Below, one piece after another: positions 1,213 through 17,340 of a stretch of 64,000 bases of DNA. Source of the DNA: a virus. The notes beneath the pieces were generated by a model, which was given only the letters and a program-made list of their open reading frames with translations, was not told the DNA's origin and did no database searches. A program made the position numbers and the translations under genes. The stretch lies in IMG/VR virus record IMGVR_UViG_3300033053_000017, positions 1 through 64,000 of that record, one strand, 5' to 3'. Each line of letters begins with the position of its first letter. Positions within the stretch are counted from its first letter, which is position 1.

Positions 1213-1420
1213 TTTCTATTCCCTCCAATGTATTAATTTTTTCTTTAAAAGTTTTCATATCAACCCATGAAGATAAACAAAAATCTTCATGATATAATCT
1301 TATATTTAATTTATTGCCACGTTTGGCTATCAAGGTTTGCATTGGCAATTCAACGTATGCAACATTATTTTCATTTAGCATGTCTTTAAAATCATTAAAT
1401 TGTTTAGACAAATCTGCCAT
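1202..1420 (-). CDS. Hypothetical protein (72 aa)
   Basis: ORF tightly packed between the ATPase and recT, overlapping both neighbours by a few nt. Confidence 0.5.
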   Translation of the reverse strand: MADLSKQFNDFKDMLNENNVAYVELPMQTLIAKRGNKLNIRLYHEDFCLSSWVDMKTFKEKINTLEGIENGK

Positions 1421-5888: not shown

Positions 5889-6623
5889 TTATTCGGTCAA
5901 TCCTAAATCCATCATTGTGTCTAAATCTATTAAAGCTGCATCATAAAGTTCTTTTATATCATTTTCTAATATGAGTTTTACAAACTCAGTTCCTTTGTCT
6001 TCTGTCCACCCATGCCTTATAGATGTTCCCCAAGAGATAAAATTCGCATGATCCATAAGAATTATCAAGGAATAAGTCAGTGCCTCACTTTCTAGTTTTT
6101 CTTTTATCTGTTCCACATCATACACATAATAAGTCTTTTCGTTTTTAAAAGTACTGAAGGCATCTTTTAAACTTTTTAGTATAGGCATTTCCCCAGTACC
6201 ATAGCAATAGCAATTAAACTTTTCCCACAATGGATAGAATTTTAATATTAATTCTTTGTTTTTTAGCATAGTTTTCGCTTCACTTTTAACAGCATAAATA
6301 TAAAATTTTTTTATTTGAATGTTCTTATTAAATATATTCTTGTTTTCGATAAGTCCATCAAATTTAGCGGCTTCTCTTTCTATGTTTTCTTTTGTGGCAT
6401 CTTTTGAATATAAATCTATAAATAATAGCTTTGTTGAACCATCTATATATTCAATTAAAATTCGTCCACCTTCTTTAAAATGTTTGATAGCTTCTGGCTT
6501 AGGCACTTCTTTCCGTTCAAATTCAAGTGTTCCTTTAATAAAAGGTATGTCGAATTTTTTATCAAACTCTTCTGCACTACAGGTAACTTTACCCATAAAA
6601 TCATTTTTTAACACGATTGTCAC
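5889..6623 (-). CDS. Hypothetical protein (244 aa)
   Basis: Long co-directional ORF with no recognisable motif. Confidence 0.6.
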   Translation of the reverse strand: MTIVLKNDFMGKVTCSAEEFDKKFDIPFIKGTLEFERKEVPKPEAIKHFKEGGRILIEYIDGSTKLLFIDLYSKDATKENIEREAAKFDGLIENKNIFNKNIQIKKFYIYAVKSEAKTMLKNKELILKFYPLWEKFNCYCYGTGEMPILKSLKDAFSTFKNEKTYYVYDVEQIKEKLESEALTYSLIILMDHANFISWGTSIRHGWTEDKGTEFVKLILENDIKELYDAALIDLDTMMDLGLTE

Positions 6624-6748
6624 TCCTTATTATTTAGAATTTATTCTAGTAGTGTGTTTTCTCTCCTTAATTAATCACCTGTCCCACCGCTATAGCAACA
6701 CTTATTCCTGCTAATAGATATATTGCAATTTTTATTAGTTCCATACTA

Positions 6749-7027
6749 CTACTTCCCATATTCACTATTTATATAAAGCTTTGCATCTCTGCCATATCTA
6801 GGCGTTATGGTTATACTTGTATTACATTGAGCAACTATATATTCAGCTCCTGTTTCCGTATCTACATAAATGGATATAGTTCCATCTATAACATTCCCTT
6901 GACTGTATACCTGAATAAACTTATCATTACCGGCCTTGGCTGGTGTATCTGTGCAGCTGGTAAAAGCCATAACACTTAAAGTAACAACTCCCACTGCTAG
7001 CAATAGATTGATTATTTTATCTCTCAT
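6749..7027 (-). CDS. Putative lipoprotein
   Basis: Signal peptide MRDKIINLLLAVGVVTLSVMAFTSC with a lipobox-like FTSC. Confidence 0.55.
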   Translation of the reverse strand: MRDKIINLLLAVGVVTLSVMAFTSCTDTPAKAGNDKFIQVYSQGNVIDGTISIYVDTETGAEYIVAQCNTSITITPRYGRDAKLYINSEYGK

Positions 7028-7573
7028 TTATTTTTCCTCCCCTATTTCCTTTTTAATTATATCTCCCAAAATAGGCATTATTATATCTGCAAAAGCATGA
7101 GCTTGAGGTGAAAAACCTTCTATAATATCAAATGAATACCATGGTTCATCATAATATTTGCGTACAATGCTACTCTCATAACATTGATGCTGTAAACTTT
7201 CACTAGAAAGGTAATAATCAAATTCAATTATTTCATCCCATAATTCTCTTGCCTGTTCTTTGTCTAATTCCCCTTCTTTTCTTGCCCTTATAACTTCTTC
7301 TTTCCAGGCTTTTTCGGTTTTTTCCTCATAATAGTGTTTATCATCTGCTACCTTGCCTAGAAAATATGGTTTATCACTAACTAGTTCTAATATAAAATGC
7401 TTAAAACTTTTTCTGCCATGACTAGGCCAGCTGTATGAATAATTGTCATAATCTGATTGAGCATTAAATAGCCCTCCATTTTCATCTATAGTAATTGTTG
7501 CCCATCCATAATCATCTACTAGCCTTATATCGTATCTTTCACATGTAGATTTTTTAAAATTATATTTTTCCAT
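7028..7573 (-). CDS. Hypothetical protein (181 aa)
   Basis: Co-directional ORF that abuts the lipoprotein gene. Confidence 0.6.
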   Translation of the reverse strand: MEKYNFKKSTCERYDIRLVDDYGWATITIDENGGLFNAQSDYDNYSYSWPSHGRKSFKHFILELVSDKPYFLGKVADDKHYYEEKTEKAWKEEVIRARKEGELDKEQARELWDEIIEFDYYLSSESLQHQCYESSIVRKYYDEPWYSFDIIEGFSPQAHAFADIIMPILGDIIKKEIGEEK

Positions 7574-7644
7574 TTACATATCCCCCTTGATTTATATTAT
7601 CCCCTATATGAACCATAGAGGCACTTTTTAGCTTGTTTTATTAC

Positions 7645-7803
7645 TTAATTGAATAAATCCTTTGCCATCTCAAAATGTATCCCCATATTCGTCATTTCGG
7701 TATTAAACCACTGTTCTAATTTATCAAGTCTTTTTTCATTCTTTTTGCTTAGTGTTGCAGCGGAATTATATTTGTCTAGTAGCTTGGAATATTCTATAAT
7801 CAT
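7645..7803 (-). CDS. Small hypothetical protein (52 aa)
   Basis: Its ATG overlaps the upstream stop (ATGA). Below the track cutoff. Confidence 0.35.
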   Translation of the reverse strand: MIIEYSKLLDKYNSAATLSKKNEKRLDKLEQWFNTEMTNMGIHFEMAKDLFN

Positions 7804-8195
7804 TCTTTATCACCTCTAATAATTTTTAAATTAGGCTTGTTTTTAGGTTCCTCGTAATTTTCGTGATACTCATTTACAAAGTAATCACAATTGCAATGTA
7901 TATATAAATAGCCACTCTGTTTATCCCAACTTAAATGATGTATTCTTCTTATCCTCAATTCTGTTTCAACTCCATGTAATTCATAACCATTACACCATCT
8001 ATCCAACATAGGAGTTTCACTGTATAATGCCACCGGTATTTTTAAATCCTTATTTCTTATACAGCCCCTTTCATCCACTTTGAATACTAAACAACTTTTT
8101 TCATCCCTAGGAGATTCTTGACTAGTACATTCCCCTCCATGAGTGCGGTTTCTGATACAATAAGCACATTGTAGTCTGTTAGGTATAATTTTCAT
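7800..8195 (-). CDS. Cys/His-rich hypothetical protein
   Basis: 131 aa. Overlaps the rep stop by 4 nt, which suggests translational coupling. Confidence 0.55.
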   Translation of the reverse strand: MKIIPNRLQCAYCIRNRTHGGECTSQESPRDEKSCLVFKVDERGCIRNKDLKIPVALYSETPMLDRWCNGYELHGVETELRIRRIHHLSWDKQSGYLYIHCNCDYFVNEYHENYEEPKNKPNLKIIRGDKE

Positions 8196-8896
8196 TCTTC
8201 ATCGCCTCCGCTTATAATTTCTATATTTTCAAACTCAAAGTATTTTCTAAGATGTATTTCAATTAAAACCAAAAACTTGTTTTCAATCATTCCCTTTACA
8301 AAGTCATTAGGACATTGAATTATGATCTTATTTTCATTTTGGCTTATATCCAGGACATTAATAAAAGAATAAAAACCTATTTCTGAATTTCTCTCTATCA
8401 TATCAGCTTTTATAGAATTAAAAAACTTATCTAGGTCATTAGGGGAGAGAGAGGCTTCTCTATTCTTCCTCTTAGTATTATTAGAGTTAGTATTATTAGA
8501 GTTAGTATTATTATATATACCCCCTTTTCCATTACCTGCGTCCCCCATATCTGAATTATCCATAGTACGGGTATTCAGTACATGGCTTTCATCTAATAAT
8601 TCATATTCATAGTGGAAAATACCTTTCTCATTTTTTAACTTATATTGCACTAAATACCCCTTGTCTTTAAGTTCTTTCCATGTTGAATTGAAAGAATCTC
8701 TACCTTCTGAACAATCTTTTTTTAATTTGTTTTTATATAGAATATAATTTTCCATGGTTATATAAGATTGAATTAAAGCATACAAACCCTTTGCTTTTAA
8801 ACTTAAACCCGGATCTCTTAAAGCCTCATTGCTAACCTGAGCAAAATAAACCTTCTTTTTTCTAAAAGCTCCGTTATCATTCAAATTACCATTCAC
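8192..8896 (-). CDS. Plasmid/phage-type replication initiator (winged-HTH N-domain plus DnaA-N-like C-domain)
   Basis: N-terminal FAQVSNEALRDPGLSLKAKGLYALIQSY is typical of Firmicute Rep/DnaD-like initiators. The C-terminal SFINVLDISQNENKIIIQCPNDFVKGMIENKF resembles the DnaA N-terminal domain. An RHH gene lies upstream. Confidence 0.55.
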   Translation of the reverse strand: MNGNLNDNGAFRKKKVYFAQVSNEALRDPGLSLKAKGLYALIQSYITMENYILYKNKLKKDCSEGRDSFNSTWKELKDKGYLVQYKLKNEKGIFHYEYELLDESHVLNTRTMDNSDMGDAGNGKGGIYNNTNSNNTNSNNTKRKNREASLSPNDLDKFFNSIKADMIERNSEIGFYSFINVLDISQNENKIIIQCPNDFVKGMIENKFLVLIEIHLRKYFEFENIEIISGGDEE

Positions 8897-8987
8897 TTCC
8901 TTTGAATATTTCTATAAAATCGTAGTATACTAATAGTACATATAAATTTTAATATCCCTTTTGTTTTCCGGTGAAGCAAACACCGGT

Positions 8988-9137
8988 TTATTTTTTTACC
9001 TCCTTTCCGTACTTTTTAAATAAATCCTCTAGGGCTTCATCTACTAGCCTAGCCATAGGTATTCTGGTTTCTTTTGCTAGTTCTTCTATAGCTGTTTTGT
9101 AAGTATCTTCAGTCATTGTGTTGAATTTTATTCTCAT
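8988..9137 (-). CDS. Ribbon-helix-helix (CopG-like) protein upstream of rep
   Basis: 49 aa MRIKFNTMTEDTYKTAIEELAKETRIPMARLVDEALEDLFKKYGKEVKK. GGGAGGTGA SD. Below the track cutoff. Confidence 0.55.
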   Translation of the reverse strand: MRIKFNTMTEDTYKTAIEELAKETRIPMARLVDEALEDLFKKYGKEVKK

Positions 9138-9158
9138 TTATTCACCTCCCTTAAACTT

Positions 9159-9188
9159 ATTATATCATGATAATTCATGATTATGCAA
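9159..9188 (-). promoter_or_regulatory. Promoter/operator of the RHH-rep operon
   Basis: Minus strand TTGCAT, 18 nt, TGATATAAT. The spacer carries direct repeats TCATGAT(A/T)A at 9165-9173 and 9175-9183. Confidence 0.55.
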
Positions 9189-9219
9189 CACCTATTTAGA
9201 AATATTTTCAAATAATTAT

Positions 9220-9339
9220 TTGCAACAAGATATAACTTGATGTACAATATAATTGTTAAGTAATCGTGGCAAATTCGACAAGTCAAATTCCCTAGTTAAT
9301 TAAGAAAGAGGCCTGCTTATATCCAGGGGCTTCTTTTTT
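9220..9339 (+). ncRNA. sRNA cassette A (own promoter and terminator)
   Basis: TTGCAA (9220-9225), 17 nt, TACAAT (9243-9248). The transcript is about 85 nt and ends in a bulged hairpin 9305-9333 plus T6 (9334-9339). No ORF. Confidence 0.45.
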
Positions 9340-9341
9340 AT

Positions 9342-9455
9342 TTGCAATTGTAAATATTTTGCTTTATAATAATCTTGTGTTTATGTTTATATTTGTTTTT
9401 CAATAATCACTAACCCTTTACTCGAAAGAAGTAGCTTGCAGACTGCTTCTTTTTT
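9342..9455 (+). ncRNA. sRNA cassette B (own promoter and terminator)
   Basis: TTGCAA (9342-9347), 17 nt, TATAAT (9365-9370). Hairpin 9427-9450 plus a T-run to 9455. Confidence 0.45.
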
Positions 9456-9457
9456 AT

Positions 9458-9593
9458 TTGCAATTATTTTCCTTTAGGTATATAATGTAAATATATTTAT
9501 ATTTATAAGGCTCATTTATCAATTCTCAACTCATTTGACAAATACATATTCCCTAGCCAAAAGGAAGTCGATAATGCCTAGACTTCCTTTTTT
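9458..9593 (+). ncRNA. sRNA cassette C (own promoter and terminator)
   Basis: TTGCAA (9458-9463), 17 nt, TATAAT (9481-9486). A 9-bp hairpin 9561-9569/9581-9589 plus a T-run to 9593. Confidence 0.45.
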
Positions 9594-9636
9594 ATTTGAA
9601 TTATAATTAAAATATCAAATACATAGAGGTTTGATA

Positions 9637-9696
9637 TGAGGTAACAACATGGAGCTATGCTGTGACATAGTGTGGGTTCAAGTCCTACTATCTCAT
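9637..9696 (+). ncRNA. tRNA-like element lacking a D-arm (acceptor stem, one hairpin, canonical T-arm)
   Basis: The 7-bp acceptor TGAGGTA (9637-9643) pairs with TATCTCA (9689-9695). T-arm is GTGGG-TTCAAGT-CCTAC (9672-9688). Only 28 nt lie between, holding one hairpin (CTATG/CATAG). No encoded CCA. Confidence 0.3.
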
Positions 9697-9704
9697 ACAA
9701 GACA

Positions 9705-9726
9705 ATAGAGGGTTTTCACCCTCTAT
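9705..9726. terminator. Bidirectional terminator hairpin between the sRNA array and mob
   Basis: ATAGAGGG-TTTTCA-CCCTCTAT followed by TTTTATTT on the plus strand. It lies directly after the mob stop on the minus strand. Confidence 0.55.
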
Positions 9727-9727
9727 T

Positions 9728-10681
9728 TTATTTGCTCATAGTTTTATACCTCTTACCGCTAAAACCTCTCTTAAAAGCGTGCTTATTGTCATTCTGAAGT
9801 ACTTCCTCTTTGCCATTCATATTCTTTTTTAATTCCTCTATTATTTTCAATAAAGTTTTATTCTCCTGCTGAAGCTTTTCATTTGTTTCATCCTTCTGCC
9901 TATTCATGTGCTGGAATGATTTTAAAGTCTTATCCATGTAGTTTACTTTCATTTTAAGCATTTCTTCATGGGCCGCTTTAGCCTGTAAAGTTTGCATGTC
10001 TGTTTCTTTAGAGTTATTATTAATCCTTGCATACCAATTGCGAATGCTAACATGTTTTGCTTTGCTGTACCGGCATCCTCTCTGCATTACAGGAAAAACC
10101 TTCTGCATATGGTCTGCGTAACTATCCTGCATATCTCTTAAAGCCTGGTATCCGTTGAAATACTTATAGTTTTGCAAGGTATAGCAGCCTTTTTTCTCAT
10201 TCCATATCCGGGGTATTAAAAGGCAATGCAAATGTAATGTTGTTTCGTCATCATGGGCAAAAACCGCTCTTATATTATCTTTGAAAGTTTCCTGCAGCCA
10301 TTCCAAATTAGTGTTTTTCCATAATTCTATTTCCTGTTTTGACATGCCTTTAAAGAATTGAGGTGTAGCGGTCAATAACAATTCTCTGCCAATCACGCTG
10401 TTTTTATATATCTTTGTGTCTTTTAGATATTCTTTAGTATCTTCGTATAAATCATTGGATCCTAAAAGCTGCTCATTATATTTAAATCTCTCAGGATCCG
10501 CATTAGGTGTTTCCCTTTCTCTTTTCATATGTTTAACAAATCCTTTAATGGATGGAATTGTTTTGAACTTTTTCTCCGATACTCTGAAAATACAATAAAT
10601 GGGCATTTTGTTATTAAAAGCATAAGGCATATCTTTTCTGTATTCGTTGGTTACTTTTTCCTCTTTAAGTCTAGCATCCAT
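9728..10681 (-). CDS. mob: MobV (Mob/Pre family) relaxase
   Basis: HMKRERE matches MobM motif I (HNQRER). AHDDETTLHLHCLLIP matches the HxDE..PHxH motif III (VHNDEQTPHMHLGVVP in pMV158 MobM, recalled from memory). Confidence 0.8.
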   Translation of the reverse strand: MDARLKEEKVTNEYRKDMPYAFNNKMPIYCIFRVSEKKFKTIPSIKGFVKHMKRERETPNADPERFKYNEQLLGSNDLYEDTKEYLKDTKIYKNSVIGRELLLTATPQFFKGMSKQEIELWKNTNLEWLQETFKDNIRAVFAHDDETTLHLHCLLIPRIWNEKKGCYTLQNYKYFNGYQALRDMQDSYADHMQKVFPVMQRGCRYSKAKHVSIRNWYARINNNSKETDMQTLQAKAAHEEMLKMKVNYMDKTLKSFQHMNRQKDETNEKLQQENKTLLKIIEELKKNMNGKEEVLQNDNKHAFKRGFSGKRYKTMSK

Positions 10682-10700
10682 TTTCTCAACTCCTATTCAT

Positions 10701-11057
10701 TTAGTAAAAACTAATTATCAAGCTATTAGAAGAAGGATACATTGTATATTCCACTTCCCTATTAATAACCGAATTAAAATCAATCTTTTCGATCCCTTCC
10801 TTGTCTTTCAAATTCTTTTTAACAAAATTTACATAATTATTGATCTTTATGCTCTCCAAAAGTTCGTCTAAATCTTCATTTTCTGTAAGTTTAAATTTCA
10901 TTATAGATGGGAATATACAATTTTTTTTGCCACAAATTATTAACACATCTATATATTTCTTAAACCAATTGCAATCTTTTACAAACTTAACAAAACATTT
11001 CTTAATATCATCATTATTGGAATTGACTTTTATGTCTTTACAAAATATTCCTAACAT
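10701..11057 (-). CDS. Hypothetical protein (118 aa)
   Basis: ORF immediately upstream of mob on the same strand. Confidence 0.5.
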   Translation of the reverse strand: MLGIFCKDIKVNSNNDDIKKCFVKFVKDCNWFKKYIDVLIICGKKNCIFPSIMKFKLTENEDLDELLESIKINNYVNFVKKNLKDKEGIEKIDFNSVINREVEYTMYPSSNSLIISFY

Positions 11058-11063
11058 GAATAA

Positions 11064-11213
11064 TCATTCCTCCCTCTTTAACTGCTCCAATACTTTTTCA
11101 TACACACATTTGCTGCACTCAAAATAAACTGGACAACTATCACAACTTTCCTGACTTTCACAAAGTGATTTATACATTTCAAATAATTGTCTTACCAATT
11201 TGGTATCTACCAA
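11064..11213 (-). CDS. Small Cys-rich protein (49 aa, TTG start)
   Basis: TAAGGAGG SD 7 nt before the TTG. Contains CESQESCDSCPVYFECSKC. Below the track cutoff. Confidence 0.35.
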   Translation of the reverse strand: MVDTKLVRQLFEMYKSLCESQESCDSCPVYFECSKCVYEKVLEQLKREE

Positions 11214-11243
11214 GATTATTCCTCCTTAAAATTGATAAAAACG

Positions 11244-11277
11244 AGATATACAGGTTATAAAGATATACAGGTTATAA
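11244..11277. repeat. Perfect tandem 17-bp direct repeat (AGATATACAGGTTATAA x2) next to a nic-like motif; candidate oriT
   Basis: Read directly at 11244-11260 and 11261-11277. It is followed by ACACACTACT, whose minus-strand reading is AGTAGTGTGTTTATAAC. Confidence 0.9.
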
Positions 11278-11296
11278 ACACACTACTAAAATAATT

Positions 11297-11800
11297 TTAT
11301 TTAGCAAAACTTCTCTGATTATTATTAACTTTCCTGTTAAAATTATGCTTCACAATTTGATTCTCTTTTTTAATCTCGACTACTTTTTCCTTGTCTTTAT
11401 ACTTCTGGTTTTCTGTTGTAAGTCTATTATTTTCAGCAGTAAGTAACTTTAGTTCATTTTTGAGCTTTTCATTTTGCTTGCTAACATTATCTACAATATG
11501 ATTAACTGTATCTATAGATTTCTGTATGCTCTTATTTTCGCTTTTAAGAGTGTTGTTTAATTGAAGCATCCTTTCATATGCTAACTTGTATTTAACGTCT
11601 TCCTTGGCTTCTGTGTTAGTTTTAAGGATATTATTTTCTTTAGCTAAGTATTCCTTTCCTGATTCTAATTCCCTGATCTTTTCATTAAGTTCATATATCT
11701 TATCAAACAGAAACTCCTTGCTTACTGCATACATATACTGAACCTTACCTTTACTGATTTGTCGTAGTAAGATATTGTTTAGCTTTTCTTTAATTGACAT
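11297..11800 (-). CDS. Coiled-coil protein (possible relaxosome accessory)
   Basis: 167 aa, heptad-rich with a basic tail. Lies between the T4CP gene and the oriT-like repeat. Confidence 0.55.
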   Translation of the reverse strand: MSIKEKLNNILLRQISKGKVQYMYAVSKEFLFDKIYELNEKIRELESGKEYLAKENNILKTNTEAKEDVKYKLAYERMLQLNNTLKSENKSIQKSIDTVNHIVDNVSKQNEKLKNELKLLTAENNRLTTENQKYKDKEKVVEIKKENQIVKHNFNRKVNNNQRSFAK

Positions 11801-11801
11801 T

Positions 11802-13256
11802 TTACTGGCCCTCCTTCATATTCTTATTTAAAAGCATTGCTTTGTCTTCATAGTATCTATACTGCTTCGCTAATATTGGTTTTAAGTTTTGGGATATAAT
11901 AAGAACTTCATCTTTTTTTAGCCTTCTAATTTCATCAGGAGTAAACACATTTTTTTTCATCTTTACAGTTCTATTGCCCTGCACTATAGGAATCTCCTTA
12001 TCACCATTTAGTGTTGTAAATTCTCTTAACATTTCTACCTCTGAATAAGCTGGTAAGATGCACTTCGTCTGCATAGCATTTAAAATTGATCTAGTTCCAT
12101 TCCTTCCGTATACATCAATCAACGCTGAAACAGATTGTAGGACAAGTAGGAAAGCATAATTTGACTCTCTTGAACTATTTACTGTTTGTGCTAAGGTTGG
12201 TATTCTGCCTAGGTTTTGCGCTTCGTCTAAAAGCCAAACAATGTTATTTTTATTGTTATCATAATACTTTTTACATTTTTCTATTAATTGGGTATACATG
12301 ATGCTCATTAATGGGGAAAGATAGTTTGAATCTTCAGGGAAGTATTTAATGTAAAGAGAAACCCTTTCATCTCTTAACATTTTATAATTAAAGTCTGAAT
12401 AGCTTGTTTTAGATGCTATCTGAGGGTCAAGCCAAAACTTTGTATTTGTTGCTAGTGTACTTAATATAGATGTTAATGGTCCACCACTGCTGTCTTCATC
12501 CTGTGGAACTGACATATTGAAAATGTTGAATTGTTTTACAACATTTTGATTTTTAGAATTACCAAATACTATTTCTATGTCTTCTGGTTCATTACTAATT
12601 AAAAAATCCACCGCTTCAGATATTGTGTTGTGTGGCCTTTTTAAATCTTTATGATAAAACAAGCTTGCCGCTAAAAGTGCTGTAGCTGCTTGAATCCAAA
12701 AAGCATCATTGCTGCTAAAACTTCCACCGCCATTACCTGAATCCAGTTTGATTGCTAGTGTTCCAGACATAAGAATGTCTTTTGCTAGTTTCTCTACTTC
12801 TGAATAAGTTTCTGCCCATTCTAAAGGGTTATAATGTCCATGTGTGCCTAGCGGTTCAAATAAAAATATTTTTCTGCCTATGCTTTTTTGATAACATGAT
12901 GTGTCTCTCCATAGTTCTCCTTTAGAATCATTGATTACTATGCTTGTATTTATAGGAAAATGATTAATTAGAAGCTGAGTATACACAAACGGAGTAGTTT
13001 TGTGCTGCCCTGGAGGGCCTATAACAATTACATTTTGCAATGAAGATTTCCAACTTAATTGATATTTTTTACCGATTTTATTTTTTCCAATTATAAAACC
13101 ATCTTTGCCTTTAATGTCTTCTAAGTCATTAGTAACTCCACCTGTAGCACTCTTAGTTCTACCTTCAAAAACAATTGGTATAGCAGCACTAGCAGCGCAA
13201 AAAGCCATCCCAGCGTAAAAAACCTTGTTTATTAATTCCATATCTAATCCATACAT
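11802..13256 (-). CDS. Type IV coupling protein (TraG/TraD/VirD4 family)
   Basis: N-terminal TM segment, Walker A GPPGQHKTT, and WLLDEAQNLGRIP...LLVLQSVSALIDVYG, which matches the TraG-D_C / TraM-recognition region. Confidence 0.8.
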   Translation of the reverse strand: MYGLDMELINKVFYAGMAFCAASAAIPIVFEGRTKSATGGVTNDLEDIKGKDGFIIGKNKIGKKYQLSWKSSLQNVIVIGPPGQHKTTPFVYTQLLINHFPINTSIVINDSKGELWRDTSCYQKSIGRKIFLFEPLGTHGHYNPLEWAETYSEVEKLAKDILMSGTLAIKLDSGNGGGSFSSNDAFWIQAATALLAASLFYHKDLKRPHNTISEAVDFLISNEPEDIEIVFGNSKNQNVVKQFNIFNMSVPQDEDSSGGPLTSILSTLATNTKFWLDPQIASKTSYSDFNYKMLRDERVSLYIKYFPEDSNYLSPLMSIMYTQLIEKCKKYYDNNKNNIVWLLDEAQNLGRIPTLAQTVNSSRESNYAFLLVLQSVSALIDVYGRNGTRSILNAMQTKCILPAYSEVEMLREFTTLNGDKEIPIVQGNRTVKMKKNVFTPDEIRRLKKDEVLIISQNLKPILAKQYRYYEDKAMLLNKNMKEGQ

Positions 13257-13347
13257 ATAAACACTCCATTTAATTATTTTTTATGAATAATAAATTATGT
13301 ACTGGGCATAATAATAGTATCGAATAAAACAAAAGGAGATGATTTTT

Positions 13348-13416
13348 ATGTATATAATCGTAGCCGGAGGATTATTAACTTATGCCGGATATTGTATATA
13401 TCAAATTTTGATGTAG
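13348..13416 (+). CDS. Possible 22-aa hydrophobic peptide
   Basis: AAAGGAG SD 9 nt before the ATG. Sequence MYIIVAGGLLTYAGYCIYQILM. It lies antisense to the T4CP operon leader. Confidence 0.25.
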   Translation: MYIIVAGGLLTYAGYCIYQILM

Positions 13417-13483
13417 TATACTTACTACTACTTTTAATATATTCTATGATTATAGATTTAAAATTGATACAAAAATTTGCAAA

Positions 13484-13516
13484 TTAAAAACCACCAGTTA
13501 TTAATTTACTGGTGGT
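13484..13516 (-). terminator. Rho-independent terminator of the HTH gene
   Basis: 9-bp stem ACCACCAGT/ACTGGTGGT overlapping the stop, followed by UUUUUAAUUU on the minus strand. Confidence 0.6.
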
Positions 13517-13704
13517 TCATCATAGTTATATTCAATTATTTTATTTTTCTCTTTGTACCACCTATCTACATCAGCCACCACAAAAATTACGCTTCTTCCT
13601 CTCCTCTTGAAAGGCATTCCCTTCTTCATATATCTTTCTATAGTAGTACGACTAACGCTATAATATTCACACAAATCCTTAACAGTACATTCTTTCTTTT
13701 CCAT
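13501..13704 (-). CDS. Excisionase/MerR-type (HTH_17-like) DNA-binding protein
   Basis: 67 aa. CTVKDLCEYYSVSRTTIERYMKKGMPF...VDRW fits the Xis/AlpA-type winged helix. The gene is monocistronic. Confidence 0.65.
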   Translation of the reverse strand: MEKKECTVKDLCEYYSVSRTTIERYMKKGMPFKRRGRSVIFVVADVDRWYKEKNKIIEYNYDEPPVN

Positions 13705-13780
13705 CTTATCGCCCCCTAATACAATATATGCAACATCTTATAAATAATTGCAAAAATAATTTTAAAAAAGTATGCAACAT

Positions 13781-13809
13781 TTAGCAATGTGATACATAGT
13801 ATGTAATAT
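13781..13809 (+). promoter_or_regulatory. Candidate promoter of the plus-strand cassette
   Basis: TTAGCA, 17 nt, TAATAT. A 10-mer TATGCAACAT is repeated at 13727-13736 and 13771-13780. Confidence 0.4.
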
Positions 13810-13841
13810 AAAGATTTAAAAATTAAAAAGGGGATATGTAA

Positions 13842-14078
13842 ATGAAAACATTCAGATTCAATAGAGAAGGGCTAAATCAATGTATGGCATATACAGATTA
13901 TAAAGAAATAGCTAAAGAGATGCTTGAAAACAACCCTCAGATACTCCCAATGGTATTAATAGGTGTATTAGGTCTGTCAATATTTTTAATAAGTCCTGGT
14001 GCATCACAAGTCGCATATAAGGCGTCCTTAGATGATACAACATCTATTATCGCATTTAAATTTTTAGGAGGTTTTTAA
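13842..14078 (+). CDS. Small membrane protein (78 aa)
   Basis: GGGGA SD and a central TM segment ILPMVLIGVLGLSIFLISPG. First gene of the only plus-strand operon. Confidence 0.55.
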   Translation: MKTFRFNREGLNQCMAYTDYKEIAKEMLENNPQILPMVLIGVLGLSIFLISPGASQVAYKASLDDTTSIIAFKFLGGF

Positions 14079-14081
14079 TAT

Positions 14082-14297
14082 ATGGATAATTTAATAAGCG
14101 GAATGATATTAGTTGAGAAAACATACGGAGATTTGCACTTGCTTTGTGCTACTCCTTATGGCTGGAAAGTGGTTGATGCAAATGGGAGTTATATCGAATT
14201 TGATCCTAGCAATTATTCAAAGGCTTATATTCCTGAAAGTTACGAAGATCCTTGGACACCATTAGCAGGCACGATAAAAGGAGGAGAAAGTATCTAA
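14082..14297 (+). CDS. Hypothetical protein (71 aa)
   Basis: Begins 3 nt after the previous stop, with an AGGAGG SD. Confidence 0.55.
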   Translation: MDNLISGMILVEKTYGDLHLLCATPYGWKVVDANGSYIEFDPSNYSKAYIPESYEDPWTPLAGTIKGGESI

Positions 14298-14497
14298 TGG
14301 AGATAACAAAATACTTGCAATTCCAAGGGAAGGAACTAGAGATTGATTCTTTAGAAAAAGAAGTTAAAGGCATATGGAAGAAACAAGGCAAGCTATTAAA
14401 AGATATAAAGGCATTGAAGTTGTATATAAAGGTTGAGGAAGGTATGTGTTACTATATAATAAATGATACTTATAATGGGAGTTTTTCAATAGAGTAG
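14297..14497 (+). CDS. Hypothetical protein (66 aa; internal start of track ORF 14252..14497)
   Basis: ATG at 14297 preceded by AGGAGG and overlapping the upstream stop (TAATG). Confidence 0.5.
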   Translation: MEITKYLQFQGKELEIDSLEKEVKGIWKKQGKLLKDIKALKLYIKVEEGMCYYIINDTYNGSFSIE

Positions 14498-14513
14498 GTT
14501 TTGAGCCTACTCT
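14491..14513. terminator. Terminator hairpin between convergent genes
   Basis: AGAGTAGG-loop-CCTACTCT followed by ATGTTATTTT on the plus strand. It lies 4 nt from the minus-strand holin stop. Confidence 0.55.
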
Positions 14514-14516
14514 ATG

Positions 14517-15005
14517 TTATTTTGCTTGTATATTAGTTGCTGCAGTATTCACTTGGTCGGTAACTATAGAAGGACTAATCAAAGGAGTTAATTCAGTCCC
14601 ATCTGGTGCGACATATTTTGTTACAGGTGTTACTGTGATTTGTTGAATAGTCTGTTGTTCTGTTTCTTTTACAGCTTCTTTACATTTATTAACTTCTCCT
14701 GCTATTGCTTGTCTTACTAAATTAATTTCTGCATCTGTTATGCTAGGGAATTGTTGCTTTATCATAGCTTCAAAAGTATTAATCTTAGTATCTGCTAGGT
14801 TCCCTAGCCTTGCATCTTCTTCAATTGCACTAAAAATATCTGCTGCAACAGTTTTTAATTTTCCGTAATTAGCAAATCCTGCTTTAGCAATCAATAGCTT
14901 AACAGCACTAGGAACTACTTTTTTAATCTCATAAACTAAAAAACCACTAACACCGGTAACAACATAAGGTATTGCCGCATTAATTAAACTTGTTAAATCA
15001 ACCAT
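14517..15005 (-). CDS. Holin-like protein (LL-H type architecture)
   Basis: N-terminal TM (IPYVVTGVSGFLVY) followed by a soluble helical region. Downstream of the amidase. Confidence 0.5.
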   Translation of the reverse strand: MVDLTSLINAAIPYVVTGVSGFLVYEIKKVVPSAVKLLIAKAGFANYGKLKTVAADIFSAIEEDARLGNLADTKINTFEAMIKQQFPSITDAEINLVRQAIAGEVNKCKEAVKETEQQTIQQITVTPVTKYVAPDGTELTPLISPSIVTDQVNTAATNIQAK

Positions 15006-15179
15006 TTAAATATCCACTTCCTTTTTATCTATTTCTATTTGTATTATGTACTTATCTTCTTTTATCTGCATTTTCACCTTTGCACCTTTTAATTCCCTTC
15101 TTGCCAATTCTTTGTATATAGCATAGAGAGAAACATTTTTAAGCGGGCTGGAATAACCGCTGTTAAAAGTATGCCCCAT
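15006..15179 (-). CDS. Small hypothetical protein (57 aa)
   Basis: AGAGGTGG SD and ATG at 15179. Fills the gap between the amidase and the holin. Below the track cutoff. Confidence 0.35.
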   Translation of the reverse strand: MGHTFNSGYSSPLKNVSLYAIYKELARRELKGAKVKMQIKEDKYIIQIEIDKKEVDI

Positions 15180-15191
15180 AAAACCACCTCT

Positions 15192-16025
15192 TTAAAACAA
15201 TCTTTTAGAACCGCCTTGGCCCTTATTATTATTCCAAAATACTTCAGGTGCGCCGCCTTTTCTTAAAGTCACATAATTACCTCTATCTAAATGAACACCC
15301 ATGTCACCATCTGCTCTTTTTTCAATATAAAAGCCTGTGTCACCTAAAGGGAAAATATTAGGCCCAGTTGGTATACTTTCGTCATAAGTTGGTGCTTTCT
15401 GTGTGGTAGTTTGACTTGTTGTTGCTTGTACTGTTTGCCCTGTTAAGGCTTGAACTATTGCGTTTGCTATTTTATCACTACCTAATGAGTTATATAAATC
15501 TGCATCTGATTGAGTATCCACAAAACATACTTCTATCAATATTGCTACTGGGCTACTATGTCTTATAACATATAAACCGCTACCATCTTTTACGCCACGA
15601 TTAACAAAGCCCAATGCTACTAGATTAGTTAAAACTTTAGAGGCTAAAGCTTTTCCAGCAGCACTCATAGCAAATACTTCTGTCCCTTTTCCTTTTCCTG
15701 CGTTTAAATGAATAGAAACTAAATAATCGGTTCCACTTGCAGCATCACATCTTCTTTGTAAACTATCTGTAACACTTGAAGCCTTGGTTGGTCTTGTATT
15801 CCATGCTGTATGTCCTAAAGCTTCTAATTTAGATATAACTTTGTTAACTATATCTAAAGAACAATCTTGTTCATTTAAATACCCTTCTGCTCCTGTATCT
15901 GGATAAATTCCATGTGCTGCATCTATAGAAAACTTACTCATGTTTTCCAACATCTCCTTTTTTTGAATTGCCCAAACAGGCATATGTACGATCATCAATT
16001 CGAGATATTCTTCTTTGATTTTCAA
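15192..16025 (-). CDS. N-acetylmuramoyl-L-alanine amidase endolysin (Amidase_3 type)
   Basis: SIDAAHG...LVSIHLNAGKGKGTEVF...PVAILIEVCFVDT motifs. The probable true start is the Met at 15941 (MSKFSIDAAHG), which overlaps the holin stop as ATGAGTAA. Confidence 0.9.
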   Translation of the reverse strand: MKIKEEYLELMIVHMPVWAIQKKEMLENMSKFSIDAAHGIYPDTGAEGYLNEQDCSLDIVNKVISKLEALGHTAWNTRPTKASSVTDSLQRRCDAASGTDYLVSIHLNAGKGKGTEVFAMSAAGKALASKVLTNLVALGFVNRGVKDGSGLYVIRHSSPVAILIEVCFVDTQSDADLYNSLGSDKIANAIVQALTGQTVQATTSQTTTQKAPTYDESIPTGPNIFPLGDTGFYIEKRADGDMGVHLDRGNYVTLRKGGAPEVFWNNNKGQGGSKRLF

Positions 16026-16281
16026 CAGCTATCTCTAAAATTGTGTCCAATTTATTATTTGTTTCTTTCTGATCCTTGTCATTAGTAACCATTTCTCTGG
16101 TCAATGTTGTTACTAATGTGTCTATTTTGTCACACAGTTTGTCTACCTTTTTATCACTTGATGTGATAACTTTACCGTTTTGCCTTGAATTTAGAATTAC
16201 GCTTATTAAAACTATTAATAAGGCTGCCCCTGCAATTCCTAACTGTAAATATCCATTTGTAATTGTATCTGTTACCGGCAT
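15934..16281 (-). CDS. BhlA/UviB-like holin
   Basis: One N-terminal TM (LQLGIAGAALLIVLISVIL) plus a charged coiled-coil tail. Directly upstream of the endolysin. Confidence 0.5.
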   Translation of the reverse strand: MPVTDTITNGYLQLGIAGAALLIVLISVILNSRQNGKVITSSDKKVDKLCDKIDTLVTTLTREMVTNDKDQKETNNKLDTILEIAVENQRRISRIDDRTYACLGNSKKGDVGKHE

Positions 16282-16301
16282 GGTCCACCTCCATTGTAAG
16301 T

Positions 16302-16352
16302 AAAAAAGAGTGGTATACTTACTACTATTCTTTAAGTAAATAATACCACTCT
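16302..16352 (-). terminator. Leader terminator/attenuator upstream of the holin gene
   Basis: 10-bp stem AGAGTGGTAT/ATACCACTCT with a 26-nt structured loop, followed by U6 on the minus strand, 20 nt before the holin SD. Confidence 0.6.
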
Positions 16353-16377
16353 TTACAAATGTTTGCTACAGGTTTAA

Positions 16378-16405
16378 TTTATAATGTTCTTGAATTGCAT
16401 GTCAA
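16378..16405 (-). promoter_or_regulatory. Candidate promoter just upstream of the leader terminator
   Basis: Minus strand TTGACA, 16 nt, TATAAA. Confidence 0.45.
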
Positions 16406-16563
16406 TCTTCATCTACATATTCAAAACCATTTTGCTTTCCCTCTGCTTTCAACTCAATTAACGCTCTATTAAAAAAACAGGTTTCATCAAGAATAGTGCC
16501 ATCTTTAAGCTTTACATAGTGTTCAAATTTTTCAATTTCACGTCCACAATCTTTACATCTCAT
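16402..16563 (-). CDS. Small Cys-containing protein (53 aa)
   Basis: GAGGTGA SD. Sequence MRCKDCGREIEKFEHYVKLKDGTILDETCFF... It is the first ORF downstream of IR arm B. Confidence 0.4.
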   Translation of the reverse strand: MRCKDCGREIEKFEHYVKLKDGTILDETCFFNRALIELKAEGKQNGFEYVDED

Positions 16564-16657
16564 GGTATCACCTCGATTCACATTTTATTCAAATTACGTC
16601 ATTACTTTTATAGTGCCACAACTTTATGTTCTATAATTTATAACATAAAAAAGAGCT

Positions 16658-16841
16658 GTCAATGACACACCACTTACTTCGTTGAAGTGGGTGCTTGTAA
16701 CTCTACTACACATGGTACATGGTACAAAGTACCTCCCATCTCAAGCGTAGGCTACGATACGGTGATTGACAACACCGCAAACTATAGAGTGTACTCTATA
16801 ATCTCTAAGAGTGCCTAAATAACGGTTTTCTCTTAGTTATA
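16658..16841 (-). ncRNA. Candidate structured leader/sRNA (IR arm B transcript)
   Basis: Same hairpin set as arm A. The conserved part is followed by CUCUUUUUUAU (about 16645-16655). Confidence 0.4.
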
Positions 16842-16847
16842 TATTTA

Positions 16848-16875
16848 ATTTTATCATAAGAAAGTGAGGTGTAAA
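16848..16875 (-). promoter_or_regulatory. Sigma-A-type promoter inside IR arm B
   Basis: Minus strand TTTACA, 16 nt, TGaTAAAAT. It reads toward the small ORF and the lysis cassette. Confidence 0.6.
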
Positions 16876-16980
16876 AGTGGTAAGTATAAGAAGTTGCTTG
16901 TCAGCAAGTGGCAATTCCTCCCCCACTTTAGAAGTAGAAGTATCCTTGCCACGAATGGATGAAAGCTATAGCTCTTAATA

Positions 16981-17289
16981 TTATTTAGTTTTAGCTTTTA
17001 ACATCTCACTAGCTTTACGGATGCAATAAACATTAATTACAAAACCTATTGTACCATTTGTAAAGAAAGTTCCTAGTAGAACTAATATAGCCATCATAAA
17101 GGTTCTTTGATAATCAAAATACATTGAAAAATGTAATCTAAAGTAGCATAACGCAACAACCGCATCTAGTATTACAAGTATTATAAGCTTCTCTGGTGAA
17201 TCAGGAAAAAAGTTAAATGCAACAATGCTACACCCATAAAAAATAATCATACTTAAAATTAATAAATTTTTGTTTTTCTTTATATCCAT
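16981..17289 (-). CDS. Small integral membrane protein (3 predicted TM segments)
   Basis: 102 aa and hydrophobic throughout. Last gene of the polyvalent-protein operon. Confidence 0.6.
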   Translation of the reverse strand: MDIKKNKNLLILSMIIFYGCSIVAFNFFPDSPEKLIILVILDAVVALCYFRLHFSMYFDYQRTFMMAILVLLGTFFTNGTIGFVINVYCIRKASEMLKAKTK

Positions 17290-17295
17290 TTTGAA

Positions 17296-17340
17296 CCACC
17301 CCTTTCTATTATATACCTAAAAGGGGTGGAAAAGTCCACC
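17296..17340 (-). promoter_or_regulatory. Mutually exclusive hairpins that sequester the SD of the membrane-protein gene
   Basis: Minus sense reads TAA-GGUGGA-CUUU-UCCACC-CCUUUU...AAAGGGGUGG-UUCAAA-AUG. CCACCCCUUU pairs with the SD AAAGGGGUGG (10 bp) or, alternatively, with the upstream GGUGGA. Confidence 0.45.

Follow-up and report, generated by a model that had tools for sequence, protein, structure and literature searches.

MobM and its oriT in pMV158, a streptococcal mobilizable rolling-circle plasmid, constitute the prototype of the MOBV1 relaxases. This 5.5-kb plasmid encodes no coupling protein (CP) and carries one oriT upstream of mobM. In pMV158 oriT, IR1 lies upstream of the G/T nick at a distance of 8 nt, and the sequence contacted by MobM is ...TAGTGTG (PMC5863519). 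Integrative mobilizable elements (IMEs) of Firmicutes carry a relaxase, an oriT, and sometimes their own CP, but no mating pore, and they pirate the type IV secretion system (T4SS) of a helper; the known MobV IMEs lack a CP, and MobC relaxases are found in the mobilizable elements reported to have their own VirD4 CP (PMC5704250). Phage-plasmids are abundant in Clostridia (PMC7969092), and conjugation genes are rare in them, being found in 6 of 222 phage-plasmids of E. coli (PMC10123127). Among P1-like elements, mob/oriT occurred in only two phage-plasmids, and the gain was accompanied by phage gene loss (PMC10879196).

The source contig has 64,378 bases, and the window analyzed here covers 64,000 of them. 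As had been described in the initial annotation, terminase, portal, capsid, tail fibre, and lysis genes were identified on the same molecule as the genes of a MobV relaxase and a type IV coupling protein (T4CP), and no match to a mating-pair-formation (MPF) family was obtained among the ORFs of the window (Table 1). Tail proteins, a polyvalent giant protein, and replication genes are also encoded. Virion, packaging, and lysis genes are combined with plasmid-type replication genes in one replicon, as in the phage-plasmids P1, N15, SSU5, and the clostridial/IEBH-type communities (Pfeifer et al. 2021). The locus follows the same mobilization logic as Firmicute IMEs, whereas the integrase/excision module that defines IMEs is absent and the carrier is a complete phage. 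The earlier reading of a mobilization module within a phage genome is supported by profile matches above the cut-offs and by the recurrent phage context described below. We estimate a probability of roughly 60% that this is a genuine conjugative-mobilization cassette and that a tailed phage of the Clostridium type, most likely a phage-plasmid, carries it as a conserved accessory module.

Table 1. Positions of the MobV-T4CP cassette, its neighbors, the candidate oriT sites, and phage genes in the window.
Feature	Position	Strand	Remarks
RecT	268-1212		phage gene
Candidate oriT site B	6635-6659	+	inverted relative to site A; hairpin TAGAA-TTTA-TTCTA (6635-6648), then GTAGTGTG/TTT (6649-6659); predicted nick G6656/T6657
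Replication-initiator-like protein, 234 aa	8192-8896	-	winged HTH and DnaA_N-like C-terminus
Ribbon-helix-helix (RHH_3, CopG-like) protein, 49 aa	8988-9137	-	PF12651, E 5e-11
Non-coding stretch, largest of the window	9138-9727		between mobV and the RHH/initiator operon
MobV (MOBV/Mob_Pre) relaxase, 317 aa	9728-10681	-	PF01076 and NF041497 profiles
Conserved protein, 118 aa	10701-11057	-	L001 homolog
Cys-rich (CxxC...CxxC) protein, 49 aa	11064-11213	-	ORF; predicted leading region
Tandem direct repeat, 2 x 17 nt, TTATAACCTGTATATCT	11244-11277	-	two 100% identical copies; abuts the nic core
Candidate oriT site A	11276-11299	-	hairpin TAAAA-TTA-TTTTA (11299-11287), then core GTAGTGTG/TTT (11286-11276); predicted nick G11279/T11278
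Coiled-coil protein, 167 aa	11297-11800	-	weak coiled-coil-type Pfam matches only
VirD4-type T4CP, 484 aa	11802-13256	-	T4SS-DNA_transf PF02534, E 7e-60; TrwB_AAD_bind PF10412, E 5e-19; TraG-D_C PF12696, E 2e-17
HTH_17 (excisionase/MerR-like) DNA-binding protein, 67 aa	13501-13704	-	directly upstream of the T4CP gene
Endolysin	15192-16025		phage gene
Tail fibre	31502-33820		phage gene
Major head protein	35421-36611		phage gene
Portal	37788-39899		phage gene
TerL	44986-46407 (plus 46439-46807)		phage gene, split
TerS	47327-47761		phage gene
Second, phage-type DnaD/DnaC replication module	58168-59632		

Both ORFs assigned to mobilization were found on the minus strand at exactly the annotated coordinates with all the motifs quoted for them (HMKRERE and AHDDETTLHLHCLLIP in the 317-aa ORF; GPPGQHKTT, LLDEAQNLGRIP, and LQSVSALIDVYG in the 484-aa ORF), and the profile searches placed both in conjugation families above the curated cut-offs and neither in a non-conjugative family. 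The 317-aa ORF scored 104 bits against Pfam Mob_Pre (E 9e-30; cutoff 25.5) and 107.8 bits against NCBIfam MobV (cutoff 100). Its relaxase domain is N-terminal (about residues 28-216) and is followed by a C-terminal coiled coil. A profile built from eight phage-borne MobV homologs reached the MobM structure 4LVI at an E of 6e-16; this match was absent when MobV was searched as a single sequence. In the same profile, motif I (H51-x-x-R54) and motif III (H143-x-D145-E146-x3-H150-x-H152) were invariant. The relaxase domains of MobM and MobV are therefore homologous, sharing HxxR and HxDE..HxH, and by inspection the C-terminal half is a coiled coil in both proteins. Judged by these matches, the 317-aa ORF is a MobV relaxase whose catalytic motifs are intact.

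The 484-aa ORF carries a single hydrophobic segment, located at the N-terminus, and its ~40 close homologs form a group of their own (437-493 aa) that adjoins MobV in phage contexts. Its best NCBIfam match was the CD1115-family VirD4-like profile (conju_CD1115; E 2e-47), with which it shares the domain set and a comparable length (442 profile positions); because its 162 bits were under the 250-bit cutoff, it is not a conju_CD1115 equivalog. PDB Cag5/VirD4 (8DOL) was matched at an E of 4e-13, the aligned part being the C-terminal NTPase/TraG-D_C region. From its domain content, the 484-aa ORF is classed as a VirD4-type coupling protein. It differs from both relatives in its Walker A motif, GPPGQHKT, in which the non-canonical GQHKT has His where a conserved Gly precedes Lys (family consensus APTGEGKT, 43 homologs compared); Walker B is VWLLDE. 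Similar Walker A variants were seen in homologs P0002, P0004, P0017, and P0031, and the His-bearing motif could impair ATPase activity. Since the known MobV IMEs are without a CP and the reported VirD4-CP elements use MobC, the combination of MobV with a VirD4-type CP is an unusual pairing. In contrast to the situation in pMV158, the relaxase resides in a ~64-kb phage with its own T4CP, and there are two nic-like sites, inverted relative to each other.

A coiled-coil protein, an intergenic repeat, and two small ORFs (49 and 118 aa) lie between mobV and the T4CP gene, in agreement with the initial annotation, which regarded the repeat as oriT-like. This part of the claim has to be shifted: the 17-nt tandem repeat is not conserved in L001, L003, or L018 and may be an accessory-protein or promoter site, whereas the hairpin and GTAGTGTGTTT at its 5' edge (site A) are conserved. 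Site B, an exact second copy of the core in the window, is intergenic between the ORFs at 5889-6623 and 6749-7027 and falls outside the interval originally assigned to the module. In both the window and the sister phage L001, two inverted core copies flank mobV. The exact 11-mer GTAGTGTGTTT was also found in L001 (two copies), L002, and L003, and L018 matched at 10 of 11 bases, all of these sites being intergenic and adjoining mob; in all, three related elements have the exact core at five separate intergenic sites, with the L018 variant as a sixth site. Stems of at least 5 bp were present at five of the six sites, compared with 3.3% of random positions; these five stems were perfect and ended 0-1 nt before the core. 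Among the core sites, the stems differ through compensatory changes. The two hairpins of the window are weak (-1.1 and -1.3 kcal/mol) and have 5 bp, compared with 7 bp in pMV158. On the other hand, the candidate nick region shares TAGTGTG/T and the geometry of hairpin, 8 nt, and G/T with pMV158, and an IR2-like repeat with the nick in its loop was found at four of the six related sites. These features suggest that the hairpin and GTAGTGTG/TTT form a conserved candidate for a pMV158-like nick site. In the more distant relatives L004, L005, and L006, the 11-mer was absent and a different hairpin was found.

Among 21 related loci, the T4CP-then-MobV pair adjoined phage genes in most, and no mating-pore gene was seen in any. 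The cassette usually directly followed the lysis genes and often adjoined ParM, ParA, or Rep genes. In the 64-kb sister contig L001, T4CP and MobV were 61% and 57% identical to those of the window, and the same order was found in L003, L004, L005, L007, L008, L009, L013, L017, and L018; in the listed relatives, MobV followed T4CP either directly or with one to three small ORFs in between. The closed circular C. botulinum phage-plasmid NZ_CP022398.1 (48.5 kb), from a cultured isolate, carries T4CP-MobV together with terminase, baseplate, holin, and ParM genes. In C. caldaquaticum, the pair is located at the edge of an integrated sipho-type prophage, and it was present in 9 of 9 IMG/VR viral contigs. 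T4CP-MobV thus recurs as a cassette in clostridial phages and phage-plasmids and is not peculiar to the phage of the window. Decayed copies were also encountered (mob split in L009/L025; T4CP split and mob truncated in L018), indicating that the cassette is not always maintained. The relatives resemble phage-plasmids in bearing ParM, ParA, or RepA_N, one of them being a closed circular plasmid; by contrast with known phage-plasmids, this cassette type is conserved in many apparently complete phages, and a partition system was undetected in the window.

If the cassette functions in mobilization, transfer would start in a lysogen co-hosting a conjugative plasmid or ICE. MobV would nick the phage replicon at the G/T of the core and remain bound to the 5' end, and the membrane-anchored T4CP of the phage would dock the relaxosome onto the type IV secretion channel of the helper. 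A single strand of the entire phage genome would then be pumped into the recipient, recircularised, and replicated from the rep module adjoining the cassette. Besides spreading as a virion, the replicon could in this way pass on by mating, with no need for the phage receptor; since the same kit is present in many related phages and phage-plasmids, spread by bacterial mating would be possible. Mobilization would be of little use to a strictly lytic phage. No integrase, transposase, partition gene, or CI-type repressor was found in the window, and given the lack of a partition gene, integrase, and CI-type repressor even its temperate or plasmid lifestyle is presumptive. The initial annotation further proposed that a terL frameshift might leave mobilization as the main route. 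The frameshift exists, but a 1-nt indel (in a GGCCCGG run) on a single metagenomic contig is weak evidence of inactivation and may be an assembly error.

A co-opted or relic cassette, whose T4CP and MobV would serve the phage-plasmid itself without intercellular transfer, is rather unlikely. MobV proteins were originally described as Pre recombinases, and the PDB title of 4LVI is 'plasmid recombination enzyme'. MobV could accordingly act as Pre on the two inverted RSA/oriT-like sites, which simple mobilization would not need in the window or L001, and resolve multimers or invert the ~4.6-kb segment that separates these sites; tyrosine recombinases of the relatives are, however, available for resolution. 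It could also be the nicking initiator of rolling-circle replication, although the phage has separate replication modules. T4CP could be a DNA translocase or be decaying. Its non-canonical Walker A motif, the decayed copies in L009 and L018, and the lack of helper or MPF genes nearby would fit a co-opted or relic cassette, but a membrane-anchored VirD4-type T4CP is not known to have a role beyond the coupling of substrates to a T4SS. Furthermore, phages with widely differing backbones share T4CP and MobV as an intact, co-conserved pair (36-66% identity), which speaks for joint selection on the two.

A nested IME or small mobilizable plasmid, recently inserted or cointegrated into the phage genome and carried as a passenger, is improbable. 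When the window is compared with L001, conservation is highest in the cassette proteins, as expected of a horizontally exchanged unit, and no match exists for RecT, the lysin, or the giant protein; however, about 20 loci with podo-like, myo-type, or sipho-type backbones have the cassette in this same place downstream of the lysis genes, a pattern that points to old modular exchange and not to a recent insertion. The cassette is located where late and early genes meet, a place at which morons and insertions collect, and has the excisionase-like HTH_17 gene at one edge, but neither an integrase nor a transposase occurs anywhere in the window, a repeat search revealed no flanking direct repeats or att-like sequences, and strand and G+C content equal those of the rest of the genome. 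An assembly chimera, in which a mobilizable plasmid and a phage were wrongly joined from metagenomic reads, is hardly credible even though the window rests on one contig and no other record contains the identical T4CP protein, because the composition is uniform, all genes are co-oriented, and the same junctions (lysis genes, T4CP-MobV, replication/recombination genes) recur in independent assemblies (ENA, JGI, Logan, and IMG/VR) and in the closed circular plasmid of the cultured isolate; the phage context is genuine.

The 67-aa protein matched Pfam HTH_17 (E 7.5e-8; 33 bits, cutoff 27) and a PHROG of the HTH/excisionase-regulator type, and its score against the NCBIfam excise domain (26.1 bits) was under the cutoff of 28.8. 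An L001 sequence is 43% identical to it, and small HTH_17 genes adjoin mob in L001 and L009; it is a candidate regulator or relaxosome accessory factor. For the 167-aa coiled-coil protein, the PHROG search gave no family, and the L001 protein in the equivalent position is 44% identical. In L003, L007, L017, and L018, the interval between T4CP and mob encodes proteins of similar size (178-252 aa), for which no homology to the 167-aa protein was detected. It is a candidate relaxosome accessory or scaffold protein. The 118-aa protein, for which neither a Pfam nor a PHROG family was found, shares 55% identity across 115 aa with the ORF that immediately precedes mobV in L001 and is conserved along with the mobilization module. 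The Cys-rich protein had no match in the Pfam and PHROG searches.

Downstream of mobV, the RHH_3 gene, which has a counterpart downstream of mob in L017, is the first gene of a putative plasmid-type rep operon. The 234-aa protein matched PHROG replication initiation/DnaD-like families (E 1e-8 to 1e-13), all its Pfam matches being under the cutoff, and was 48-49% identical to a DnaB_2/DnaD-domain protein that adjoins the mob-ParM block in both L004 and L006, the latter a closed C. botulinum plasmid. The RHH_3/initiator-like pair is homologous to the Rep adjoining ParM in L004 and L006. An Rfam search of the adjacent non-coding stretch yielded no family. This stretch contains three tandem ~116-nt units on the plus strand, each with a promoter (TTGCAA-17-TATAAT or TACAAT) and a terminator-like hairpin. 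It has 14 promoter-like sites, compared with 4.7 +/- 2.4 in shuffles, and 4 terminator-like sites, compared with 0.3, and the units possibly represent countertranscript RNAs or a replication-control region.

Both ORFs of the mobilization cassette were found at the coordinates given in the initial annotation, with all of the motifs quoted there. The 317-aa ORF, described as a MobV relaxase, scored above the cutoffs of Pfam Mob_Pre (PF01076; 104.4 bits, E 9e-30, cutoff 25.5) and of the NCBIfam MobV equivalog NF041497 (107.8 bits, cutoff 100). A phmmer search of PDB with a single MobV sequence gave no match, and a profile of 8 phage-borne MobV proteins was therefore needed to reach the MobM relaxase domain (4LVI; E 6e-16). 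In the resulting alignment, motif I (H51-M-K-R54) was aligned with "kHnER" of MobM, whose catalytic histidine, H22, is part of the motif I HxxR. HxxR was invariant in the 8 homologs, as were the H, D, E, H and H positions of motif III (H143-D-D145-E146-T-T-L-H150-L-H152), which has Leu where MobM "HLDESTPHMH" has Pro. By profile and motif, the protein is thus assigned to the MOBV relaxases with its catalytic motifs intact, and nicking activity is predicted. The MobV profile found at least 218 relatives, of which the named ones were from Clostridium and many were located on contigs of 39-65 kb. Among GenBank phages, tblastn gave at best 27-33% identity for MobV and 20-25% for the coupling protein, mostly on unannotated human-gut "Bacteriophage sp." contigs.

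The claim that the 484-aa ORF is a coupling protein (T4CP) was borne out by three profiles above their cutoffs: T4SS-DNA_transf (203.7 bits, E 7e-60, cutoff 20.1), TrwB_AAD_bind (68.8 bits, cutoff 20.5) and TraG-D_C (63.8 bits, cutoff 22). Its best NCBIfam match was conju_CD1115, a VirD4-like type of C. difficile CTn elements, at 162.3 bits against a cutoff of 250; judged by this score, the protein is related to conju_CD1115, yet outside that equivalog. About 40 homologs (36-66% identity, 437-493 aa) formed one group with it, and an exact-protein look-up returned no record. The Walker A sequence, GPPGQHKT, departs from the canonical (G/A)xxxxGK(S/T) in that His replaces the Gly before the catalytic Lys; Lys and Thr are kept. 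Of the 42 homologs aligned at this site, 37 have GK. A residue other than Gly was found at the same position in P0002, the closest homolog (same as the window), P0004 (NDKT), and P0017 and P0031 (both EHKT). GPPGQHKT could be a tolerated variant or the sign of a weakened ATPase. The Walker B sequence is VWLLDE, and its acidic D/E-E pair was kept in 43 of 43 homologs. One hydrophobic stretch, judged by eye, was seen at residues ~11-30 (VFYAGMAFCAASAAIPIVF); classical VirD4 proteins have two TM helices.

The coiled-coil ORF, repeat and two small ORFs that had been placed between mobV and the T4CP gene were all confirmed. The "oriT-like repeat" (2 x 17 nt) is present and abuts a candidate oriT, site A, but it is not conserved in relatives, and the tandem repeat was therefore rejected as the oriT core. 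The 11-mer GTAGTGTGTTT occurs as two exact, inverted copies 4.6 kb apart, which enclose mobV and the rep genes: one in site A, where the stop codon ending the coiled-coil ORF opens the hairpin, and one in site B. A 64-kb sister contig, L001, also has two inverted copies, 2.8 kb apart and flanking mobV, and the related contig L003 has one. In L018, a variant, GTAGTGTGTTC, lies immediately upstream of mob and is preceded by a 7-bp stem. At 5 of the 6 distinct sites, the core is preceded at a distance of 0-1 nt by a perfect stem of 5 bp or more, compared with 3.3% of random window positions (binomial probability ~2e-7). The stems differ by compensatory changes (TAAAA/TTTTA, TAGAA/TTCTA, GAAAA/TTTTC, GTTTTT/AAAAAC and GAATTAT/ATAATTC), and a second repeat places G/T in a loop at 4 sites. 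In the oriT of pMV158 (PMC5863519), the G/T nick lies 8 nt beyond the end of IR1 and within IR2, and ...TAGTGTG is the sequence contacted by MobM. The candidate sites, each a hairpin followed by GTAGTGTG/TTT, share this layout of a 5' hairpin and G/T. On this sequence evidence only, sites A and B match a MOBV-type oriT, with an inverted repeat ~8 nt 5' of G/T in a GTGxGT-type core, and from the shared architecture the nick positions in the table are predicted.

The 11-mer was absent from L017, a 4.2-kb fragment, and from the more distant relatives L004, L005 and L006. Another conserved hairpin, AACCGTAA-TAAG-TTACGGTT, lies between T4CP and mob in these three relatives, with the form CCGTA...TACGG in L005; this hairpin may serve as a terminator or as the oriT of these elements. 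As for the inverted arrangement of the two nic-like sites, two convergent oriTs are one possibility and a substrate for MobV/Pre-mediated inversion is the other. Service of the pair in Pre-type recombination or inversion is a live alternative to transfer.

Features of the window and of related loci
Sequence	Feature	Position	Strand	Details
Window	RecT, SbcC-like ATPase	268-3378		Profile scans
Window	Site B	6635-6659	+	Intergenic; hairpin TAGAA-TTTA-TTCTA, then 11-mer (6649-6659); predicted nick G6656/T6657
Window	RHH_3 and initiator-like genes	8192-9137		
Window	Largest non-coding gap	9138-9727		Promoters TTGCAA-17-TATAAT or TACAAT at 9220, 9342, 9458
Window	MobV, 317 aa	9728-10681	-	
Window	Between T4CP and mobV			167-aa coiled-coil ORF, 83-nt intergenic, 49-aa ORF, 118-aa ORF
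Window	Site A	11276-11299	-	Hairpin TAAAA-TTA-TTTTA (11299-11287), then 11-mer (11286-11276); predicted nick G11279/T11278
Window	T4CP, 484 aa	11802-13256	-	Walker A, residues 78-85 (13006-13029)
Window	Small ORF cluster	13842-14497	+	78 aa, 71 aa, 81 aa (DUF6465)
Window	Polyvalent protein, 3502 aa	17341-27849	-	LPD38, ART-PolyVal ADP-ribosyltransferase, MTS methyltransferase, RadC/JAB
Window	TerL ORF, 473 aa	44986-46407		
Window	122-aa ORF	46439-46807		Junction with TerL ORF ~46440-46475
Window	Phage-type DnaD-like loader, DnaC/IstB-like ATPase	58168-59632		Profile scans
Window	SSB, Dam and Dcm methylases, dUTPase, thymidylate synthase			Profile scans
Window	TerS, TerL, portal, major head protein, tail and fibre proteins, endolysin			Profile scans
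L001	64-kb sister contig			T4CP 61%, MobV 57%; giant helicase protein, amidase, ParM-like ALP, RecT
L001	11-mer	12286-12296	+	
L001	11-mer	15128-15138	-	
L003	18.8-kb contig			T4CP 45%, Mob_Pre 48% identity
L004	Gene order			Baseplate wedge, holin, lysozyme, then T4CP, Mob, ParM, DnaB
L004	Hairpin	9750-9790		
L005	Neighbor			ParM-like ALP adjoining T4CP-MobV pair
L005	Hairpin	11385-11405		
L006	Hairpin	41310-41350		
L007	Neighbors			LPD38 protein, holin, amidase
L008, L009	Neighbors			Holin and lysozyme, primase; L009 also RepA_N
L009	Decayed Mob_Pre	11444-12434		Split into 150 aa and 170 aa
L011	Integrated sipho-type prophage			At its edge, beside housekeeping genes, C. caldaquaticum
L013	Neighbors			Primase-helicase, ALP, sigma factor, ERF
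L018	Neighbors			LPD38, XhlA, amidase, ParA, CI/Cro pair, ERF
L018	Decayed T4CP and Mob	7345-8782, 10001-10786		T4CP split into 233 aa and 232 aa; Mob truncated to 261 aa
L019-L027	IMG/VR viral contigs			T4CP then MobV in 9/9

In every readable context, T4CP was followed by MobV directly or after 1-3 small ORFs, and phage genes adjoined most of the pairs. The IMG/VR contigs were found with an alignment query, a single-protein scan of IMG/VR having given nothing; a scan of genome contigs gave 6 loci only, too few for a census. The 39-41% relative L006 (NZ_CP022398.1), from a cultured strain of C. botulinum, is a closed, circular plasmid of 48.5 kb. Its genes run in the order terminase, head, baseplate, holin and lysin, then T4CP, a "plasmid recombination protein", ParM, DnaD and DnaB. 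Despite its MobV relaxase and T4CP, PLSDB/MOB-suite types this plasmid as "non-mobilizable"; standard typing misses this MobV clade, and an annotation gap is thereby exposed.

The cassette was seen with virion modules of podo-like (the window), myo-type and sipho-type phages. The genes most conserved between the window and L001 were those of the cassette proteins, and no match at all was obtained for RecT, the lysin or the giant protein; by this comparison, the cassette behaves as a module traded among mosaic phages. The recurrence of the pair, together with NZ_CP022398.1, argues against a recent private insertion. An IME is recognized by its own integrase/excision module and att-bounded ends, and the cassette had neither: no window ORF scanned matched a recombinase family, and the only direct repeats bounding the cassette were short, chance-level pairs, on which ground its reading as a recent IME was rejected. 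An assembly chimera is excluded by recurrence across loci and by the closed circle of NZ_CP022398.1. Decayed copies also occur; mob is split in L009 and L025, and L018, in which both genes are damaged, still carries the best hairpin-plus-core site.

The claimed absence of mating-pair-formation (MPF) genes, which mark a self-transmissible element, was supported: no window ORF of at least 300 aa matched any MPF family. MPF genes, such as that of a VirB4-type ATPase, were not seen in the related loci either. The protein families, the intact catalytic motifs, the conserved nic-like site, the failure to detect pore genes and the repeated association with genes for phage functions and plasmid maintenance, all established here, support the identity and context of the cassette; its function is plausible. 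We infer that the phage replicon would be mobilized through a helper's pore. In a lysogen with a co-resident conjugative plasmid or ICE, MobV would nick the episomal phage DNA, and the phage-encoded T4CP would connect the relaxosome with the pore of the helper. The entire replicon would then be transferred, and the rep module next to the cassette would re-establish it. If transfer started at site A, the leading segment would comprise the small ORFs, mobV and the rep region; if it started at site B, this segment would also lead, on the opposite strand.

A wider reading, to which we give a tentative probability of about 0.35, is that clostridial temperate phages and phage-plasmids, a broad group including replicons of C. 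botulinum-group strains, routinely spread both by virion and by cassette-driven mobilization. Beyond MobV, their own T4CP and oriT, all that they would require is a mating pore supplied by a co-resident element. Selection would act on the cassette, which would be exchanged among podo-like, myo-type and sipho-type backbones, and the inverted nic pair would be functional, e.g. in bringing the rep/mob segment into the recipient first or in MobV-mediated inversion.

Phages and conjugative elements are usually viewed as using exclusive transfer routes. With such a cassette conserved across many apparently complete clostridial phages, a prophage could use a T4SS to spread beyond what its virion's receptor and host range allow, could survive loss of packaging functions and could move among infection-resistant strains. 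MOBV relaxases, VirD4-type T4CPs and phage-plasmids are known kinds of part; what is unusual is the combination of MobV with its own VirD4-type coupling protein, the stable residence in complete phages and the inverted nic pair. Known MobV IMEs have no coupling protein of their own, and mobilizable elements with their own VirD4 coupling protein carry MobC relaxases (PMC5704250). According to a survey, few phage-plasmids carry conjugation genes (PMC10123127), and in P1-like elements the gain of mob/oriT is linked to phage-gene loss (PMC10879196). A literature search, in which subscription journals were not covered, found no description of the cassette in clostridial phages. The analysis provides a concrete candidate oriT and an unusual MobV/own-VirD4 module, and the finding, which extends to a family of clostridial phage-plasmids, is of interest for the mobile-element field.

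The phage genes claimed on the same molecule were recovered by profile scans (TerS, portal, MCP, tail proteins and lysin), and the window resembles a complete tailed phage with a podo-like virion module by gene content, the TerL split excepted. Of the 64,378 bases in its contig, the window takes in 64,000. All of its substantial genes are on the minus strand, and its G+C content is uniform (~30-36%). The portal relatives in deposited phages were only ~22% identical, and megablast of 8000-14000 against phage and plasmid collections gave no match; on these comparisons, the phage itself is new. The terL frameshift was seen as a 1-nt indel, but this is a single metagenomic contig, which cannot support a claim that mobilization is the only route left. 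The 122-aa ORF ends ...FLVLKGRQA, and the continuation, GFTTF..., crosses a GGCCCGG run in the adjacent frame into the 473-aa TerL ORF, so that the single-base indel splits TerL within Walker A. A true pseudogene, a programmed shift and an assembly error are all possible explanations of the split.

Profile scans of the window found no integrase, CI-type repressor or partition gene; tblastn found no ParM remnants, and ParA was likewise absent. Relatives with ParM, ParA or RepA_N exist. The cassette has the lysis genes on one side and the early genes on the other, and is followed by the RHH_3 and initiator-like genes. The initiator-like protein was 48-49% identical to a DnaD/DnaB_2-type protein beside the mob-ParM block of L004 and L006. 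There are two separate replication modules, one phage-type and the other, with RHH and initiator-like genes, beside mob, a likeness to P1-type phage-plasmids with their separate lytic and plasmid replicons. The largest non-coding gap contains three tandem ~116-nt units. They read on the plus strand, antisense with respect to every gene, and each has a near-consensus promoter and a terminator-like hairpin. The gap has 14 promoter-like sites against 4.7 in shuffles and 4 terminator-like sites against 0.3; Rfam gave no match in 6000-17400 at E <= 0.1. As in plasmids of the pMV158 or pIP501 type, the units could encode countertranscript RNAs that regulate an operon, here that of the RHH and initiator-like genes.

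The only convincing plus-strand genes form the cluster between the lysis genes and the cassette. L001 has an equivalent, oppositely oriented cluster, in which one ORF shares 63% identity with the 71-aa protein; this L001 cluster also contains a ParM-like gene that the window lacks. The 3502-aa polyvalent protein, immediately upstream of the lysis genes, probably has an anti-defence role after injection; polyvalent anti-defence proteins are typical of conjugative elements too. At the same position, 1361-1377-aa proteins of no family on record are encoded in L008 and L009, and giant proteins in L001 (helicase domains, 4428 aa) and in L007 and L018 (LPD38).
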